Positions 43,744-59,645 of a stretch of 64,000 nucleotides of DNA are shown here, one piece after another. The notes beneath the pieces were generated by a model that was not told where the DNA came from, did no database searches, and worked only from the letters and a program-made list of their open reading frames with translations. Where the stretch lies: sequence record PP449093.1. One strand, given 5' to 3'. How positions within the stretch are numbered: the stretch's first letter is position 1; the number at the start of each line of letters is the position of its first letter. Source of the DNA: Escherichia coli phage phiS. A program made the translations under genes and the position numbers.

Positions 43744-44277
43744 ATGTCTGGTTTTAAGATGTGGGATGATTTTACACAAAAAGAAATTAGAGATAAGTAT
43801 AAACACGTTAATGGTATATTGTACCATTTGAAAGACAGTGGAAAGAATGGTCGATGGTATAAGGCAGGAGACCCGGTTAAAGTTTATAAAAATAGTCGAG
43901 GTTATCTATGTTTTAAGTTTTGGCGCAGTGATGGCTATTCTTTGGTCATTAAAGTTCATAGGGTTGTTTGGTATCTTGAACATGGTACGCAAGTTAAAAT
44001 GATCGACCATGTAGATAGAAACCGAGAAAATAATGCACCGGATAACTTGAGAGAATCCACTTCTCAGGAAAATGCATTCAATCGCGGAAAACTTGATGGT
44101 TGTAAGAGCAAGTATAAAGGAGTGATTAGAACACAGAATAACAAATGGTGTGCTCAGATATCAATCAATCGTAGAAAGGTCCATTTGGGCGTCTTTCTTG
44201 ACGAAGTTGATGCTGCAAAGGCTTATGACGAAGCAGCAAAGGAACATTTTGGAGATTATGCTAGTTTAAATTTTTAG
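43744..44277 (+). CDS. HNH-AP2 homing endonuclease (copy 1)
   Basis: HNH core (HRVVWYLEHG, IDHVDRNRENN) followed by AP2-like DNA-binding domain (YKGV, KW.A.I, LG.F, EAA.AYD); paralog of 52200..52775. Confidence 0.75.
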   Translation: MSGFKMWDDFTQKEIRDKYKHVNGILYHLKDSGKNGRWYKAGDPVKVYKNSRGYLCFKFWRSDGYSLVIKVHRVVWYLEHGTQVKMIDHVDRNRENNAPDNLRESTSQENAFNRGKLDGCKSKYKGVIRTQNNKWCAQISINRRKVHLGVFLDEVDAAKAYDEAAKEHFGDYASLNF

Positions 44278-45603: not shown

Positions 45604-45864
45604 ATGTCCAATCAGCATGAACAAATGATTAATGTCCTGAAAGTACGTCTGTTTGACACTCAAGAAAAGGCCGCATTCTTAGAAGGCCAACTGAAAGATC
45701 GTGAGCGTGTATTGATGGAACTGGTACGCATTCTGGGTATTCAGCCAGACGAAAACGGCACTGTTTCCCTTGATGCTATTGTCGAAGAAGTGAAAGCACT
45801 TCTCCCTAAAGACGAAGCCGCAGAAGAAGCAGAAGAGGAAGTAGAACTGATCAAGGAGGCTTGA
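45604..45864 (+). CDS. 57A: gp57A-like coiled-coil chaperone
   Basis: ATG with AGGAG RBS (track start 45598 is GTG); acidic C-terminal tail; position. Confidence 0.5.
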   Translation: MSNQHEQMINVLKVRLFDTQEKAAFLEGQLKDRERVLMELVRILGIQPDENGTVSLDAIVEEVKALLPKDEAAEEAEEEVELIKEA

Positions 45865-45866
45865 TT

Positions 45867-46331
45867 ATGACCCCGTTTAGAGAATCCGTTAAAGGTACAT
45901 ATGCGGCGGTTAAATTCACTGAGGATACACTAGACCGCATTGAAAAATTGCAGGAGTTCTACGATCTGCCTAATGCCGTTCCTCGTGATAAACTGCATAG
46001 CACTATCTTATATTCTCGTGTCTATGTTCCGTTTATCCCAGAAGAAGGGGAGAAGTTCTTAGGCTCTCTATGCCATCTGAAAGTGTTTGAAACTCAATCC
46101 GGTACTAATGCGCTTGTGCTGGCATTTGAAAGCGACTACATGCAATTCAGACACGATATCGGCACTGCTTTAGGTGCGACGTGGGATTATCCTGAATATG
46201 TACCGCATATCACGCTTTCTTATGATGTTGGTGCGCGTAAATTTGGCACTGACCTAGAGTTTGATTTAGAGATTGTCCGATCTCATGAGTATGTCGAAGA
46301 TCTAGACCTGGAGTGGACGACCAAACTGTAA
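45867..46331 (+). CDS. 2H phosphoesterase superfamily protein (position of T4 57B)
   Basis: Two H-x-T/S-x motifs (LHSTIL and PHITLS) with appropriate spacing; AAGGAGG RBS before ATG at 45867. Confidence 0.55.
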   Translation: MTPFRESVKGTYAAVKFTEDTLDRIEKLQEFYDLPNAVPRDKLHSTILYSRVYVPFIPEEGEKFLGSLCHLKVFETQSGTNALVLAFESDYMQFRHDIGTALGATWDYPEYVPHITLSYDVGARKFGTDLEFDLEIVRSHEYVEDLDLEWTTKL

Positions 46332-47052: not shown

Positions 47053-47256
47053 ATGGAATTTGATATGGTTAAAGCAAAATTTATGGGTAAGGATAAGAGC
47101 GGTAAAACATTTGTTATTAATAGAACATTGTTTCGCTCTGACCTTAAGTGGGTAACACAACAATTTGCGGAAGTCAACGAGGCAGTTGTGACATGCTTCG
47201 TTGATGGTAAAAAAGTTTTTGAAATTGATCGTCGTGGGATGTCTAATGATCACTAA
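47053..47256 (+). CDS. hypothetical early protein (67 aa)
   Basis: ORF in tight array. Confidence 0.4.
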   Translation: MEFDMVKAKFMGKDKSGKTFVINRTLFRSDLKWVTQQFAEVNEAVVTCFVDGKKVFEIDRRGMSNDH

Positions 47257-52199: not shown

Positions 52200-52775
52200 A
52201 TGGCTTTTAAATATTGGGATGAATCCCTACAAAACGAGATAAAACTTAGATATGCTCATATAGAGGGTATCTTATATTATAGAGTCGATAGTAAAGCTAT
52301 CAAAGGACGACCATTAGGGAGTAGATATAAACACGGCGATTTAGTTAAAGTCAGAACAAATAAAGATGGTCATCTTAGATTTTGGCATAGTAGAGATGAC
52401 GGTCTTCCTAGAGTTCATCTATTCGTGCATAGGGTTGTTTGGTTTCTGGAACATGGGACGCAAGTTAGATTAATTGATCATATTGACGGGAATCCTGCTA
52501 ATAACAATCCTCCAAATCTTAGGGAGGCAACCGACGCGCAAAATCAACACAATAGAAAGAAGAAGTCTAAAAAGTTTTCTAGTGTGTATAAGGGTGTTAG
52601 TAAGTGTAACAGGAAGGATTTGCGTAAGAAATGGAGAGCTAGTATAATGGTCAACCTAAAAAGACATGTTCTTGGACAATATGACACAGAAATCGAAGCT
52701 GCAATCGCTTATGATAATGCAGCTAGGAAATTTTATGGAGAATATGCTCTATTGAATTTCCCAGATCCAAAATAA
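52200..52775 (+). CDS. HNH-AP2 homing endonuclease (copy 2)
   Basis: HRVVWFLEHG, IDHIDGN..NN HNH core plus AP2-like C-terminal domain; paralog of 43744..44277. Confidence 0.75.
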   Translation: MAFKYWDESLQNEIKLRYAHIEGILYYRVDSKAIKGRPLGSRYKHGDLVKVRTNKDGHLRFWHSRDDGLPRVHLFVHRVVWFLEHGTQVRLIDHIDGNPANNNPPNLREATDAQNQHNRKKKSKKFSSVYKGVSKCNRKDLRKKWRASIMVNLKRHVLGQYDTEIEAAIAYDNAARKFYGEYALLNFPDPK

Positions 52776-53882: not shown

Positions 53883-53915
53883 AGCCAATCCTAAAGGGTT
53901 GGCTTTTTCTTTTTA
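53883..53915 (+). terminator. rho-independent terminator
   Basis: agccaa...ttggct hairpin followed by ttttt c ttttt. Confidence 0.6.
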
Positions 53916-53958
53916 TTGTGATATGATGACAAAACTTAACAACATGGAGATTGACATT

Positions 53959-54486
53959 ATGATTAAAAGATATTGTGACGACCATCCGGTGGAAGAGTGG
54001 AAAGTGATTGAGGATCTTTATCCGTTAACTCATTTTGAGATTAGCTCTCATGGTCGAGTTAGAAATTCTATTACCGGAAAATATTTGTCTATTGTTGAAA
54101 CGAAAGATTATACTAAAGTTTCTTTTAAGCATCGTCCTAGTAAAACGCATAAAACTTTAAACATGCATAGGATGATGGCTGTTGCGTTTATTCCTAATCC
54201 TAATAATTATCGTGTAGTTAACCATAAGGATGGAAACAAGAGAAATTTTGACCTGTACAATCTTGAATGGACTACAGACACGCGAAATCTTGCTCATGCA
54301 AAGGAAGAAGGGTTAAACAAAAATTGGGGAGAGAACCACGGAAACGCAAAACTAACAGATAAGCAAGTGAAAGAGATTTTAGCTTCTCCACATATGAAAG
54401 GTGTAGAGCTTGCAAGAAAATATAATGTTACCCCTGCCACAATTAGCCGTGTCCGAAATGGTAAAGTCCGTAACGTCAAATACTAA
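53959..54486 (+). CDS. HNH homing endonuclease with NUMOD4-like N-terminus and C-terminal HTH
   Basis: HFEISSHGRVRN, NHKDGNKRNF..NLEW HNH core, C-terminal helix-turn-helix; ATG at 53959 follows the terminator (track start lies inside it). Confidence 0.7.
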   Translation: MIKRYCDDHPVEEWKVIEDLYPLTHFEISSHGRVRNSITGKYLSIVETKDYTKVSFKHRPSKTHKTLNMHRMMAVAFIPNPNNYRVVNHKDGNKRNFDLYNLEWTTDTRNLAHAKEEGLNKNWGENHGNAKLTDKQVKEILASPHMKGVELARKYNVTPATISRVRNGKVRNVKY

Positions 54487-55414: not shown

Positions 55415-55656
55415 TGTATGTGATGACACCTTATAGTAACCGCAAGTATATTACACCTAATACACTGTATGAATATACACCACATGAAAGATTTTCGAAT
55501 AGTGGTTATATCCGTGATGATAAGGGACACCAGATTTTTATTTGTCTTAAAAATTGTGCACACTTAGACGGTCGAACCTGGACACTGGTCGAAGAACCAA
55601 AACAACATGAGAATAAAGGTCTTTGGAATGTGCTAAAAAAATTCTTGAAAAAGTAG
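55411..55656 (+). CDS. small protein, tandem paralog family member B
   Basis: ATGA overlap with A. Confidence 0.45.
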   Translation: MMYVMTPYSNRKYITPNTLYEYTPHERFSNSGYIRDDKGHQIFICLKNCAHLDGRTWTLVEEPKQHENKGLWNVLKKFLKK

Positions 55657-55687
55657 TTGACAGCATGAAACGGGGGGGTAGTAATAT
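55657..55687 (+). promoter_or_regulatory. early promoter cassette P6 (TTGACA-19-TAATAT)
   Basis: Same cassette as P2 with two extra G in spacer; conserved leader. Confidence 0.45.
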
Positions 55688-55715
55688 ACCCCCATCGAAA
55701 CAAAGGAGTATTAAA

Positions 55716-56051
55716 ATGAGTGTTAAAGAAGTGTTTGTTTATACCGACTATGACGGGTGCGCCTATCTCACTGCTGGAAAACTTTACCGTTGTGAGATTA
55801 TTCATGGTACGCTAGGTCGAATTATGTGCGATCCGATTACAAAATTGTGGAAAAATAATCCTAGTGAGCGAGAAACTCTTATTAACCTAGATCCAGACGG
55901 TTGTTCACATTTGGACTATAGAAAATGGCATATAGTTACACATGATGCTTATGGTATTCATCTTGCTACTAAAGAATTAACTATTGACAAGTTCAAGTTT
56001 AAAGAAATCCCGTTTGTATACTGGCTTCGCAATTTGTTTAAGAAAGGATAA
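55716..56051 (+). CDS. small protein, tandem paralog family member C (111 aa)
   Basis: Weaker similarity to A and B (LT.GKLY, HLD.R.W). Confidence 0.45.
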   Translation: MSVKEVFVYTDYDGCAYLTAGKLYRCEIIHGTLGRIMCDPITKLWKNNPSERETLINLDPDGCSHLDYRKWHIVTHDAYGIHLATKELTIDKFKFKEIPFVYWLRNLFKKG

Positions 56052-56055
56052 TAAA

Positions 56056-56478
56056 ATGGAAACAATTAACGTACATGTTCGCCGTAGTAAGCTGCGTAGA
56101 TTCTTCGAAACCGAAATGCGCAAAACCAATGCGCAGATCAAAGAAAAGTGCTTGAATGATGGTTACGGTGAGTATATTTTCATTCGCTTTAGTCCGCATA
56201 TGATCGACCGTCTAACCGATCGTCATATCGATGAACATAAGACAATGGAACTATTCAATAAGATAGAAACTCGTTTGCCGGAGATCTTCGACTTCCTGAA
56301 AATGGAAGACCGTCCGAATCGATTAGAAATTACTGACGGTAACATGTGGATCGGGATGACAGTAGATCTAATCGAAGACGGCAAGCCATATCACGGTCTA
56401 TGCTGCCGAATGATTATAGAGAATCCAAAACGACTGGCGGGTAAAATGTCGGCGGTTGTTTTGAAGGTAGACCAATAA
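56056..56478 (+). CDS. hypothetical protein (140 aa)
   Basis: ATG at 56056 with AAAGGA RBS. Confidence 0.45.
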   Translation: METINVHVRRSKLRRFFETEMRKTNAQIKEKCLNDGYGEYIFIRFSPHMIDRLTDRHIDEHKTMELFNKIETRLPEIFDFLKMEDRPNRLEITDGNMWIGMTVDLIEDGKPYHGLCCRMIIENPKRLAGKMSAVVLKVDQ

Positions 56479-56501
56479 TGGAAATTGGTTAAAAATAATG
56501 C

Positions 56502-56530
56502 TTGACTTTCTGGTGATAGGGCTATATTAT
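56502..56530 (+). promoter_or_regulatory. sigma70-type promoter (TTGACT-17-TATTAT)
   Basis: Hexamers 35 nt upstream of the 56565 ATG. Confidence 0.4.
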
Positions 56531-56564
56531 GGAATCAGAAAGTTAAGCCAAACAGGAGAAATTA

Positions 56565-57155
56565 ATGTTAAAAGTTCTAAAAGCGATAGTATTGAGTCTG
56601 TCACTAGCCGTTGGTGCTACACACGCATCGACTAGCGCACCGATCAAAAAAGCGCCGATAGACAACTTTACAGCACACCAACTAGATAATTTACATTTCG
56701 CCTATCAATACGGCGAGCAATTCGAGAAAAGCGGTAAGTTGAAAAAGTACCATCCGAATATTCGCTATAACGGAAAGGGTTTAGGTCACATCCTGGCGGG
56801 TATCGCATGGCAAGAATCAAGCGCGGGTGCAAACTTAGCACCAAAGAAAAATCATCATGCTTATGGATTATTTCAAAATTACCTTAAAACGGTGAAAGCG
56901 AAAAATGCAAAGCGCGGTGTTAAAATGAGTGATCGCCAGACTATCAACTTTATCATGAATCGCGAGGTTTCTGCATTCTACGCGATGGATGAGTTAGCAT
57001 ACTGGCTGGATGTTCGAAACGGTAATATCCGACTCGCGCTAGCTTCTTACAATGCAGGGTGGAACTATAAAGCCGGGTTAGGTTATGCTGATGACGTACT
57101 AAAAAAGGCTAACCATCTAAAGAGTAAAGGCATTCTTAAGACTAAACGCTATTGA
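56565..57155 (+). CDS. secreted lytic transglycosylase (SLT domain) with signal peptide
   Basis: N-terminal signal peptide; SLT motifs AWQESS, YGLFQ, ASYNAG. Confidence 0.7.
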   Translation: MLKVLKAIVLSLSLAVGATHASTSAPIKKAPIDNFTAHQLDNLHFAYQYGEQFEKSGKLKKYHPNIRYNGKGLGHILAGIAWQESSAGANLAPKKNHHAYGLFQNYLKTVKAKNAKRGVKMSDRQTINFIMNREVSAFYAMDELAYWLDVRNGNIRLALASYNAGWNYKAGLGYADDVLKKANHLKSKGILKTKRY

Positions 57156-57162
57156 GGAATAT

Positions 57163-57522
57163 ATGAAAAAGTTGACAATAATTGCTATGATTGCTATGAT
57201 GTTCTCGGCTGGTGCGCTTGCTAGTAATGAGCGCCCTTATCCAAAGTTTGAATACAAAGGATTTGAGATCAACAAAAAGATCATTAAAACTTTCTGTGAT
57301 GATGATAACATGTGTAGTGATTTTATCGCGCTCGAACTTGATGAAGCATACAAACAAGGTAGAGACGAAAAACGAAAAAATCGAGCATGGGATCTGAGTA
57401 TTGCCAGCTTTGCTAAAACAAAACGCAACCTGTGTGATACTGCCCCTGATAAGCAATTATGCTTTGCTTATCGCGACACACTGTTAAGCCGTTTTATGGC
57501 TGGGTTGTCGTCCCGTGACTAA
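57163..57522 (+). CDS. periplasmic protein with signal peptide and 4 Cys (119 aa)
   Basis: Signal peptide MKKLTIIAMIAMMFSAGALA; adjacent to SLT gene. Confidence 0.5.
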   Translation: MKKLTIIAMIAMMFSAGALASNERPYPKFEYKGFEINKKIIKTFCDDDNMCSDFIALELDEAYKQGRDEKRKNRAWDLSIASFAKTKRNLCDTAPDKQLCFAYRDTLLSRFMAGLSSRD

Positions 57523-57537
57523 TGAGAGGTTTATATT

Positions 57538-57993
57538 ATGATTATTGATACTGTAAAGGGCGATCTCATCGCCCTGTTTAAACAAGGAAACGGTCATTTA
57601 ATTCATGGTTGTAATTGTTTTCATACTATGGGCGCTGGTATTGCTGCAAAGATCGCGAAAGAGTTACCGCAAGCGTTAGAGATTGACAAGCAAACTTCTC
57701 GCGGTAAGGTAGAAAAGCTGGGTGGGTTTAGTGTCTGGACGCATCAAGTTAATGGTTATAACTGGTGCGGGGTGAATCTCTATACCCAATTCCGACCGGG
57801 TCCAAATGCTGAATATGGTGCTATCCTGAAAGGATTTGAGACTATCAATGATGTTTTTGAAGGTGCTATACAGCCTTTCTATATTCCTAAAATCGGTTGC
57901 GGTATCGGTGGCCTTGAGTGGGAATGTGTAGAAGAGATCATTAATATTGCTACTCCAGACATTAACATTGTGGTGGTTGAATATGACAAATAA
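57538..57993 (+). CDS. macro-domain protein (ADP-ribose binding/hydrolase fold)
   Basis: N-terminal pattern GDL...LIHGCNCF..MGAGIA and later IGCGIGG resemble the macro-domain Gly-rich loops. Confidence 0.5.
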   Translation: MIIDTVKGDLIALFKQGNGHLIHGCNCFHTMGAGIAAKIAKELPQALEIDKQTSRGKVEKLGGFSVWTHQVNGYNWCGVNLYTQFRPGPNAEYGAILKGFETINDVFEGAIQPFYIPKIGCGIGGLEWECVEEIINIATPDINIVVVEYDK

Positions 57994-58177
57994 AAATGAT
58001 CTATATTCCGGTGATTGGGTGAAACGTCAGTCTGTAGAAAACGTAACTTGTTTTCGTTGTTTCACTGAATACAATATAAAAACCGCTCCTGTTAGTGTTC
58101 CAAAGACAGACGGGTATTATATTAAAGAACCGCATTGCCCTAAATGTAAATGTCGATTATATTGGAGTCATCTATGA
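57983..58177 (+). CDS. zinc-ribbon small protein (CxxC...CxxC)
   Basis: CFRC and CPKCKC pairs; ATG at 57983 overlapping previous gene. Confidence 0.4.
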   Translation: MTNKNDLYSGDWVKRQSVENVTCFRCFTEYNIKTAPVSVPKTDGYYIKEPHCPKCKCRLYWSHL

Positions 58178-58392
58178 AGAAGCCTAATACCGCTCACATG
58201 AAAGAAAACTGCCGATGTGTTAGATGTGGTTGGCCTATTATATTCACTTGCTGTAACGACGATATGCAGCGTTTACCGTGGGGAATGTGGGATTGGTGGA
58301 TGTATTGCAGCAATAAAGGTTGCGACCATCATGAAGGTGAAGGAGTCTTTCAGGAAACACCTGATTGGGTGGAGGTGATAGAAAATGCTTGA
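58174..58392 (+). CDS. Cys/Trp-rich small protein
   Basis: CRCVRCGW, CC, C..GC; ATG at 58174 with GGAG RBS. Confidence 0.4.
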   Translation: MKKPNTAHMKENCRCVRCGWPIIFTCCNDDMQRLPWGMWDWWMYCSNKGCDHHEGEGVFQETPDWVEVIENA

Positions 58393-58678
58393 GACTATCA
58401 TTAATCTTGTTGTGTGGACTTTTATTTTCGTTATTGTTATTATGGCGGGTGTAGAGATTGTAAAACAATATCTATTGCAATCTCGAAATAAACATGTTGT
58501 CGTTGATATGGACTCGCAAGGCAATAAGTTGATCCGGTTAGAAGATGGTCGGGAATATTGGGTCGGGTATCCCAAAACTCTGAAAGGGTTTATCCTTGCC
58601 ATGAGCATTAACATCTTTTTCATTGGTATCTGGACTTATATCGGTTTAGGTCTTGTTGGATTTTTGGAGATTAATTAA
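58385..58678 (+). CDS. membrane protein (97 aa)
   Basis: Two hydrophobic helices. Confidence 0.45.
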   Translation: MLETIINLVVWTFIFVIVIMAGVEIVKQYLLQSRNKHVVVDMDSQGNKLIRLEDGREYWVGYPKTLKGFILAMSINIFFIGIWTYIGLGLVGFLEIN

Positions 58679-59274
58679 TGGCGCAATTATATTTCTACTA
58701 TGCATCTATGAACGCTGGCAAATCAACTTCTCTGTTACAAAGTGCTTATAACTATACCGAACGTGATATGCGAGTATTAATTCTTAAGCCAGCGATTGAT
58801 AATCGAGATTCAGAAAGTGAAGTCGTTTCCCGAATTGGCCTAAGTGCCCCAGCGATCACCTTCACTAAATCGGATGATCTTTTCGATTTGGTTTATCGTG
58901 AATCGTTAGGTAAGCGTAGACCGGATCGATGGCGTCCAGATGCAGTTTTTGTAGACGAAGCCCAATTTATGACTAAAGAGCATGTTTTAGGCTTGTGTGC
59001 GCTTGTTGATGATGCTAATATCCCTGTACTGTGCTATGGCCTTCGCACTGACTTTCAGGGCAATCTATTTGAAGGATCTGCGGCATTAATGGCATTTGCT
59101 GATAAACTGGTCGAAATGAAGGGTATTTGTCATTGTGGCAAGAAAGCGACTATGGTCCTTCGCGTAGATAAAGATGGTAATGTTATTCGCGATGGTGCTC
59201 AAATAGAAGTTGGTGCAGAGGATAAATATGTTTCGGTGTGCCGTAAACATTTTATTGACGGTACTACCAAATAA
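58678..59274 (+). CDS. tk: thymidine kinase
   Basis: P-loop MNAGKST, VDEAQF, GLRTDF, zinc ribbon CHCGKKA...CRKH; similar to T4 Tk. Confidence 0.9.
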   Translation: MAQLYFYYASMNAGKSTSLLQSAYNYTERDMRVLILKPAIDNRDSESEVVSRIGLSAPAITFTKSDDLFDLVYRESLGKRRPDRWRPDAVFVDEAQFMTKEHVLGLCALVDDANIPVLCYGLRTDFQGNLFEGSAALMAFADKLVEMKGICHCGKKATMVLRVDKDGNVIRDGAQIEVGAEDKYVSVCRKHFIDGTTK

Positions 59275-59342
59275 GAGTTAATCATAAATAAAGCCCCGGA
59301 TTATAAATATAACTGAATATTTTCAATCTGGGGGAATGACTT

Positions 59343-59645
59343 ATGTCATTTATTCGTAAAACTCTAACAGCGGCAATATGCTTGACTGCGGTCGGAAGTG
59401 TCAGTGCTGACCAATATGATCCAACTGGTGATTTTACTGATTATTTCGACGGCGCAATGATAGTATATGTAAACAAAATATCTCCTTCCATTGAAACCAG
59501 CCAGAAATTTCATGCCCATATTATGAAGATGTATGCTCGTAGTAAATGTATGGATTCTAGGCAGTGTTTTATTATGGGGGGATATGCCGCACAACAATTT
59601 GTTCTGTTGCATAATATGGAGAATCGAGAACATGAAATTCAGTGA
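59343..59645 (+). CDS. secreted small protein with signal peptide (100 aa)
   Basis: N-terminal signal peptide. Confidence 0.45.
   Translation: MSFIRKTLTAAICLTAVGSVSADQYDPTGDFTDYFDGAMIVYVNKISPSIETSQKFHAHIMKMYARSKCMDSRQCFIMGGYAAQQFVLLHNMENREHEIQ

Follow-up and report, generated by a model that had tools for sequence, protein, structure and literature searches.

Phage phiS of Escherichia coli carries, in the 64,000-nucleotide (nt) stretch analyzed here (sequence record PP449093.1; hereafter, the window), a gene at positions 57538..57993 for a macrodomain protein of 151 amino acids (aa). By its sequence and position, the gene is the ortholog, in a phage of the genus Krischvirus, of T4 tk.4, which has also been named adfM. 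The protein, phiS Tk.4, is probably a free-standing macrodomain ADP-ribosyl-glycohydrolase and likely counters DarTG2-type toxin–antitoxin systems by hydrolyzing DarT2-made thymidine-ADP-ribose with Asn26 and Gln84. ADP-ribosylation of phage DNA is the means by which DarTG systems stop phages, and whether a given phage grows on a given strain is decided by the erasers that phages carry. The orthology with tk.4/adfM predicts DarTG2 resistance of RB49-type phages and corrects the database labels “phosphatase” and “hypothetical protein.” The anti-DarTG2 function of the Tk.4 orthologous group is already known from the literature; the main finding has been published for T4, and the gene has been described in relatives. 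Relative to the searched literature, only a mechanistic point is new, namely a Gln at the position of the catalytic lysine of DarG together with the lack of a toxin-binding domain. Because of these two features, the Tk.4 family is not to be treated as a simple DarG mimic.

Identity and genomic position of phiS tk.4

The reading frame of tk.4 begins with ATG and ends with TAA on the plus strand. The features of the gene are as follows.

57538..57993, plus strand: tk.4 (adfM ortholog), 151-aa single-domain macrodomain protein of the ALC1-like/TARG1 class
57524..57529, plus strand: Shine–Dalgarno-like GAGAGG, 8 nt 5′ of the tk.4 start codon, as read from the sequence
57598..57645, plus strand: residues L21–A36 (LIHGCNCFHTMGAGIA), first ADP-ribose-binding loop with Asn26 and His23
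57613..57615, plus strand: codon of Asn26, an invariant family residue
57787..57789, plus strand: codon of Gln84, aligned with DarG Lys80, TARG1 Lys84, and SCO6735 Gln85
57892..57912, plus strand: residues I119–G125 (IGCGIGG), second, phosphate-binding Gly-rich loop

The initial annotation had described a 151-aa open reading frame (ORF) with Gly-rich motifs without identifying it as tk.4; the frame is real, and all three quoted motifs are present. A chance reading frame is excluded by the match to PHROG 335 (E = 1.5e-60) and by those to Pfam Macro and solved macrodomains given below. The 2.8 kb around tk.4 is 97.8–99.3% identical to the Escherichia phages E26, JSE, Phi1, and RB49, T4-type coliphages of the genus Krischvirus in the Straboviridae. 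The label tk.4 is used in the records of Phi1 and JSE, both with 98% identity to the window at this locus. The same gene is called “phosphatase” in the RefSeq versions and “hypothetical protein” in many other records.

T4 Tk.4 and the phiS protein are 43% identical with 150 of the 151 residues aligned (E = 6e-44). The gene order in the window is regB, vs.1, vs, tk.4, three small genes, tk, and rI, and that of T4 is regB, vs.1, vs, tk.4, tk.3, tk.2, tk.1, tk, rI.1, and rI. The arrangement regB–vs.1–vs–tk.4–...–tk–rI, with tk.4 downstream of vs and upstream of tk, is common to T4, Phi1, CC31, and the window. The orthology with T4 tk.4 follows from the full-length homology and the shared gene order. 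The two proteins are also similar in length (151 versus 155 aa) and have the same invariant residues, including HGCNCFHTMG, NLYTQF, and IG-G-G. In contrast, T4 tk.1–tk.3 have no relationship with the three small genes that phiS carries between tk.4 and tk. Besides vs.1, vs, and tk, only tk.4 has a T4 counterpart in the interval by BLASTP, which led us to reject homology of the small genes with tk.1–tk.3. The T4 interval contains the families DUF7438 and DUF7202, whereas the window contains Phage_zn_bind_2 and Phage_zn_bind. The surroundings of tk.4 are a plastic block of small ORFs, in which the slot of tk.4 between vs and tk has been kept from T4 to phiS.

The gene had been assigned to an “early hyperplastic region.” The plasticity holds for the block of small ORFs but not for the conserved slot of tk.4, and the word “early” derives from the T4 gene order only. 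By analogy with T4, phiS tk.4 may be expressed early. A promoter and terminator scan of 55500..59500 gave 15 promoter-like sites versus 12.6 expected by chance and was uninformative on timing. A near-consensus sigma-70-like promoter (57172..57200, plus strand; TTGACA, 17 nt, TATGAT, and an upstream TG) is located just inside the vs start, about 340 nt upstream of tk.4, in a region where the total of such sites is not above chance.

Fold, class, and active site

The macrodomain assignment was borne out by profile, solved-structure, and fold searches. Pfam Macro (PF01661) matched over all profile positions (1–118 of 118) with 27.0 bits against a gathering cut-off of 22 (E = 4.5e-6). Solved macrodomains were matched with E = 2e-7 using the single sequence and with E = 1e-15 using a profile of 80 homologs. 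The AlphaFold2 model, built from 80 homologs, had a mean predicted local distance difference test (pLDDT) score of 96.7 and a predicted template modeling (pTM) score of 0.91. phiS Tk.4 has the macro fold, a three-layer α/β/α structure, with two Gly-rich ADP-ribose-binding loops. In a Foldseek search against the Protein Data Bank (PDB), the top matches were TARG1, Poa1p, DarG, BT1257, and SCO6735, with TARG1 (27–29% identity) and Poa1p (22–24% identity) ranked first. The TM (template modeling) values were 0.80 for T. aquaticus DarG, 0.77 for Mycobacterium tuberculosis DarG, and 0.79 for BT1257. The values in the fold-comparison table were as follows.

BT1257: 18.5
M. tuberculosis DarG: 18.2
Poa1p: 17.9
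TARG1: 17.1
T. africanus DarTG: 17.0
Next best (coronavirus, alphavirus, and PARP macrodomains): about 14

Because both the structure and the sequence are nearer to TARG1, DarG, SCO6735, and Poa1p, phiS Tk.4 belongs firmly in the ALC1-like/TARG1/DarG class and not in the MacroD, viral, PARG, or other classes. This class contains the known thymidine-ADP-ribose DNA glycohydrolases (PMC9411070). The sole match in the PADLOC and NCBIfam libraries was DarG, over its N-terminal macrodomain half only. The DarG equivalog NF048014 of NCBIfam was matched at model positions 2–141 of 338 with 43.7 bits against a cut-off of 250, and the PADLOC DarG model was matched at positions 3–141 of 329.

In the first loop, G24, N26, M31, G34, and A36 do not vary across 80 family members. 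This loop aligns with “AHVCN” of SCO6735 (Asn27), “NTVNC” of DarG, and “LIH23SCNC” of Poa1p. In the second loop, P117, G120, and G122 are invariant in the 80 members, and the loop aligns with TARG1 “IGCGLDR,” DarG “LGVGNGG,” and SCO6735 “IGCGLAGG.” The position of TARG1 Asp125 is occupied by Gly124 in phiS Tk.4. The placement of Gln84 is based on HMMER alignments to 5m3i, 4j5r, 5e3b, and 2fg1 and on MAFFT. Because MAFFT, applied to seven macrodomains, put the central segment of SCO6735 and BT1257 in the wrong place, the HMMER alignments were relied on instead. None of the residues Gln84, Asn26, Asn80, and Tyr82 varies among 80 phage or metagenome homologs. Scanning one genome per species yielded 376 bacterial relatives, and the bacterial comparisons cover the best 80 of these. 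Gln84, Asn80, and Tyr82 are invariant in all 80, which were retrieved with a pattern that excluded the positions of these three residues.

The characterized members of the class differ from Tk.4 in distinct ways. SCO6735 of Streptomyces coelicolor (PDB ID: 5E3B) and BT1257 (PDB ID: 2FG1) are Gln-type ALC1-like macrodomains with about 25% identity to Tk.4. They have the same Lys-to-Gln replacement as the Tk.4 family, and Gln84 and Asn26 of phiS Tk.4 correspond to the Asn/Gln pair of this subgroup (Gln85 and Asn27 in SCO6735). However, their mobile loop exceeds that of DarG and TARG1 in length by about five residues, an extension that the Tk.4 family lacks. The first loop of Tk.4 (“TMGAGIA”) resembles those of TARG1 and DarG, whereas SCO6735 has “GWGKGFV.” DarG (PDB IDs: 5M3I, 5M31, and 7OMU) has the catalytic Lys80 and a C-terminal DarT-binding domain, both missing in Tk.4, and, unlike darG, phiS tk.4 has no darT gene nearby in a tblastn search with one DarT2 query. 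The His of the “AH/IH-x-C” motif and the Gly-rich phosphate loop are common to Tk.4, human TARG1/OARD1 (PDB ID: 4J5R), and yeast Poa1p (PDB ID: 6LFQ), and the Poa1p motif LIHSCNC is almost identical in Tk.4. The Lys84/Asp125 dyad of TARG1 is Gln84/Gly124 in Tk.4, and TARG1 and Poa1p are eukaryotic enzymes acting on proteins or ADP-ribose-1′′-phosphate. As judged from the alignments, Tk.4 proteins do not simply copy DarG but consist of a single domain with different active-site residues.

Proposed function and alternative explanations

The functional evidence comes from T4. In a bioRxiv preprint of November 2025, a T4 transposon library was screened on E. coli expressing DarTG2, and tk.4 was the single significant hit on this host (10.1101/2025.11.20.689424). 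A clean deletion of tk.4 made T4 sensitive to DarTG2; the authors likened T4 Tk.4 in structure to M. tuberculosis DarG, named the gene adfM (anti-DarT factor macrodomain), and proposed that AdfM removes ADP-ribose from DNA (10.1101/2025.11.20.689424). The initial suggestion of an anti-defense role by reversal of ADP-ribosylation thus has genetic support from the T4 ortholog, with phage DNA as the likely substrate. Orthology, synteny, fold, class, and active-site make-up are established for phiS Tk.4, and the 43%-identical protein would be expected to have the same anti-DarTG2 action as its T4 counterpart. Its substrate is most likely thymidine-linked ADP-ribose on phage DNA, not a protein.

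The closest biochemical precedent for a Gln-type site is SCO6735. This enzyme strips thymidine-linked ADP-ribose off DNA faster than DarG or TARG1, is inactive on guanosine-linked ADP-ribose, neutralizes DarT in cells, and rescues E. coli from DarT (PMC9411070). The Q85A and N27S mutants lose activity, and Asn27 positions Gln85 (PMC9411070). Since SCO6735 works on thymidine-linked ADP-ribose with Gln85 and Asn27, the Gln-type site of Tk.4 would, by analogy, be fully compatible with the proposed activity against DarT2 products. The reaction may proceed as follows. During infection, host DarT2 would ADP-ribosylate thymidines in TNTC motifs of single-stranded phage DNA and block replication. The DNA of the window contains about 18.6 TNTC motifs per kb per strand. 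The ADP-ribose would be bound in the macrodomain cleft that the loops HGCNCFHTMGAGIA and IGCGIGG form. The catalytic mechanism is probably that of SCO6735 and not the lysine type of DarG and TARG1; Asn26 would hold Gln84, which in turn would bring the distal ribose into place for water-mediated hydrolysis. Cleavage of the ribose–thymine bond would release ADP-ribose and restore normal DNA.

A second phage protein was independently named AdfM. PhiKZ gp104 is a chimallivirus single macrodomain that counters DarTG2 (Cell Reports 2026, PMC13309987). It removes DarT2-made ADP-ribose from a TNTC oligonucleotide in vitro, relieves DarT2 toxicity, and is impaired by the N23A mutation (PMC13309987). 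The conserved Asn (N23) that gp104 needs is a likeness to Tk.4, whereas gp104 is only 25.6% identical to phiS Tk.4 (E = 2.5e-5), has the lysine of a DarG-type “FPTK” motif, and is imported into the phage nucleus. On sequence grounds, the two proteins named AdfM are different lineages of one macrodomain class, Tk.4 being Gln-type and gp104 Lys-type. Annotation transfer between the two lineages would blur a real difference in the active site. T4 AdfN (30.3), which acts against DarTG1, is likewise a phage-borne, antitoxin-like ADP-ribosyl-glycohydrolase without a toxin, but it has an unrelated NADAR fold and acts on guanosine-linked, not thymidine-linked, ADP-ribose (PMC11825919).

Several points weigh against the proposed function. 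The evidence for T4 Tk.4 is genetic and comes from a preprint, the phiS protein is just 43% identical to it, and our literature search found no paper linking Krischviruses with DarTG2. About 2,700 phage records contain a member of the family, as do many bacteria that have no DarT nearby, and this wide occurrence may point to a broader or different primary role. The active site is also unusual. The catalytic Lys of DarG and TARG1 (Lys80/Lys84) is absent, with Gln84 in its place, and the longer mobile loop of SCO6735 and BT1257 is missing, leaving a gap of 5–6 residues after the Gln in the profile alignment. Because it has neither this Lys nor this loop, the Tk.4 family appears to fit neither characterized subgroup exactly. 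Furthermore, the N-terminal motif LIHGCNC...T30 is nearly identical to LIH23SCNC...S30 of Poa1p, which makes other substrates possible. In this comparison of the motif alone, His23 is conserved and Ser30 is replaced by Thr30, and the bacterial homologs have Thr, Ala, or Ser at position 30.

The resemblance to Poa1p raises the question of whether DNA is the main substrate. Tk.4 could be a general ADP-ribose eraser or metabolite enzyme, acting like TARG1 on Glu/Asp of proteins or on RNA ends, like Poa1p as an ADP-ribose-1′′-phosphate phosphatase, or as an O-acetyl-ADP-ribose deacetylase. The database label “phosphatase” rests on such a Poa1p/metabolite-type reading. To our knowledge, T4-type infection of E. 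coli involves no relevant source of ADP-ribose-1′′-phosphate, which counts against a main substrate of this kind. The rank of TARG1 and Poa1p at the top of the Foldseek list fits such activities, as does the match of LIHGCNC..T30 to LIH23SCNC..S30 of Poa1p, whose deposited structures carry mutations at these residues. The bacterial homologs are found in housekeeping contexts without DarT, and SCO6735 also acts on Glu/Asp-ADP-ribosylated proteins (PMC9411070). However, the DarTG2 host is the only reported condition that makes T4 tk.4 important, and the Lys84/Asp125 dyad of TARG1 is replaced by Gln84/Gly124; we consider a non-DNA main substrate unlikely. It is somewhat less probable still that Tk.4 counters DarT2 mainly in a noncatalytic way, with the macrodomain as a binding module that either binds the toxin and inhibits it or shields the modified DNA. 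The missing canonical Lys would agree with this, and DarT remained inhibited in vitro by the catalytically dead Q85A mutant of SCO6735, to a greater extent than by dead DarG or TARG1 (PMC9411070). ICP1 AdfB, another phage anti-DarT factor, works through direct interaction (PMC11481870). Nevertheless, the ADP-ribose-binding loops and the Asn/Gln pair are invariant across 160 homologs, including bacterial ones without DarT nearby, and the 151-aa Tk.4 lacks the dedicated C-terminal DarT-binding domain of DarG.

T4-type phages encode ADP-ribosyltransferases of the Alt/ModA/ModB type, and a paired eraser that tempers them by removing marks from host or phage proteins or RNA would be logical. These enzymes modify arginine, and we know of no cleavage of the arginine linkage by the macrodomain class of Tk.4. 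In addition, the phenotype in the T4 screen was specific to DarTG2, and the Tk.4 family is common in phages of many unrelated groups, which makes a role against the phage's own transferases very improbable. Equally hard to credit is the degradation or sequestration of ADP-ribose-derived immune signals, such as the glycocyclic ADP-ribose (gcADPR) of Thoeris or other NAD-derived messengers. Degradation of such signals had been put forward in the initial annotation, and the present analysis found no support for it. Hydrolysis of DarT2-made thymidine-ADP-ribose is the reading that we prefer.

Distribution and neighboring genes

By tblastn, 2,724 of 50,697 phage records matched the macro protein. 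The family is present in Straboviridae, Vequintavirinae, Felixounavirus, Pakpunavirus-like Pseudomonas phages, Ackermannviridae-like phages, and cyanophages. Outside Krischvirus, Vequintaviruses carry the closest relatives (68% identity versus 43% for T4). That the Vequintavirus copy is much closer than the T4 copy implies, at the sequence level, an exchange of tk.4 between coliphage groups. The bacterial homologs share about 36–47% identity over the best aligned segment, and the majority belong to marine and sediment Desulfobacteraceae, the Roseobacter group, Shewanella, Pseudoalteromonas, and Bacteroidota. Most are stand-alone proteins of 147–190 aa, with a few longer ORF calls of up to 262 aa. 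With P. aeruginosa DarT2 (translated from PMC13309987) as the one tblastn query, which can miss divergent DarTs, no DarT2-like gene was found within 3 kb of the 80 bacterial homologs and no significant match anywhere in the window (best E = 0.19). Clustering of the neighbors at the 80 bacterial loci revealed no common gene family beyond lineage-specific synteny and spurious GC-rich antisense ORFs. The lack of darT near the bacterial homologs and in the window (80 loci, one DarT query) argues against a DarTG2 operon as the source of the phage gene and for its origin in a pool of free-standing Gln-type macrodomains.

In Felixounavirus vB_EcoM_Shy (L006 2995..3780), a Tk.4-like macrodomain forms the N-terminal part of a 261-aa “putative phosphatase,” and the PHROG 335 profile has 422 positions with the macro part at 54–205. 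From these lengths, some family members appear to be fused to an uncharacterized C-terminal region.

The genes downstream of tk.4 are as follows.

57983..58177, plus strand: 64-aa Zn-ribbon mini-protein (Pfam PF23903, Phage_zn_bind_2; E = 1.1e-23), whose start overlaps the tk.4 end by 11 nt
58174..58392, plus strand: second Zn-binding mini-protein (Pfam PF23895, Phage_zn_bind; E = 5.6e-34), whose ATG at 58174 overlaps the preceding stop
58385..58678, plus strand: 97-aa hydrophobic small protein (PHROG 16027), whose start and stop overlap the neighbors
58678..59274, plus strand: thymidine kinase (tk), after the gene for the 97-aa hydrophobic protein

The two zinc-ribbon mini-proteins noted beside tk.4 at the outset are real and belong to Phage_zn_bind_2 and Phage_zn_bind. 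The stop/start junctions from tk.4 through tk are ATGACAAATAA, ATGA, ATGCTTGA, and TAATG. Because these stop and start codons overlap, tk.4, the two Zn genes, the 97-aa gene, and tk are very likely co-transcribed and translationally coupled. For the PF23895 gene (frame 58150..58392), the ATG at 58174 is the most likely start, not that at 58150. Phi1 ORF089 is annotated with 168 nt, shorter than the intact 72-aa frame found by tblastn (L002 4675..4890), and looks like a mis-annotated end. The PF23895 protein has no homolog in the T4 interval, and the PF23903 gene is absent between tk.4 and tk in T4.

We rejected the PF23903 Zn-ribbon protein as an obligate partner of the macro protein, as the former is present in 233 phage records and the latter in 2,724, and as the T4 interval lacks PF23903. 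In the Vequintavirus AlexBoehm, 2 of the 11 genes around the macro gene match the window, and these are the macro gene itself (68%) and PF23903 (78%). The record counts of macro and PF23903 agree (57 and 57 at identities of at least 95%; 119 and 127 at 60–80%). In CC31, about 950 bp separate tk.4 from PF23903, which is on its downstream side. The jumbo phages GAP32 and CBB have PF23903 flanked by an Acb1-like gene and a SIR2 gene, with NUDIX/cREC_REC, NAMPT, and NMNAT genes as neighbors. The positions of PF23903 in comparison loci are as follows.

L004 3713..3904: PF23903
L005 4403..4531: PF23903
L007 3974..4207: PF23903

PF23903 is loosely linked, as an association only, to the macro gene and to NAD-related genes, and by this association a counter-defense or NAD-related role is possible. 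A wider reading would treat the Tk.4 family as an independent Gln-type free-standing lineage common to phages and bacteria rather than a DarG antitoxin captured by phages, with a hybrid site (Asn/Gln as in SCO6735, Poa1p-like His/Thr, and a short DarG-like loop), perhaps substrates other than DarT2-modified DNA as well, and a two-gene cassette with the translationally coupled PF23903 gene in Krischviruses and Vequintaviruses. We regard it as rather unlikely. If it were true, the PF23903 partner could supply the toxin- or DNA-binding function of the DarG C-terminal domain.

Two known counter-defense genes, acb1 and dmd, are located upstream of tk.4 on the same strand and were taken as support for a counter-defense role. 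These and other upstream features are as follows.

45861..46331, plus strand: Acb1 (anti-CBASS; Pfam E = 1.5e-51), labeled “57B RNA ligase” in RefSeq Phi1
47053..47256, plus strand: Dmd (anti-RnlA/LsoA; E = 1.5e-14)
43744..44277, plus strand: HNH_3 homing-endonuclease-like ORF
52200..52775, plus strand: HNH_3 homing-endonuclease-like ORF
53899..54486, plus strand: HNH_3 homing-endonuclease-like ORF

The ORF130.1 endonuclease and the gene 38 region of Phi1 have no match in the window. The stretches of the three HNH_3 ORFs have no counterpart at those sites in the otherwise collinear Phi1. Two of these ORFs carry an AP2 domain, and one carries NUMOD4 and a helix-turn-helix domain.
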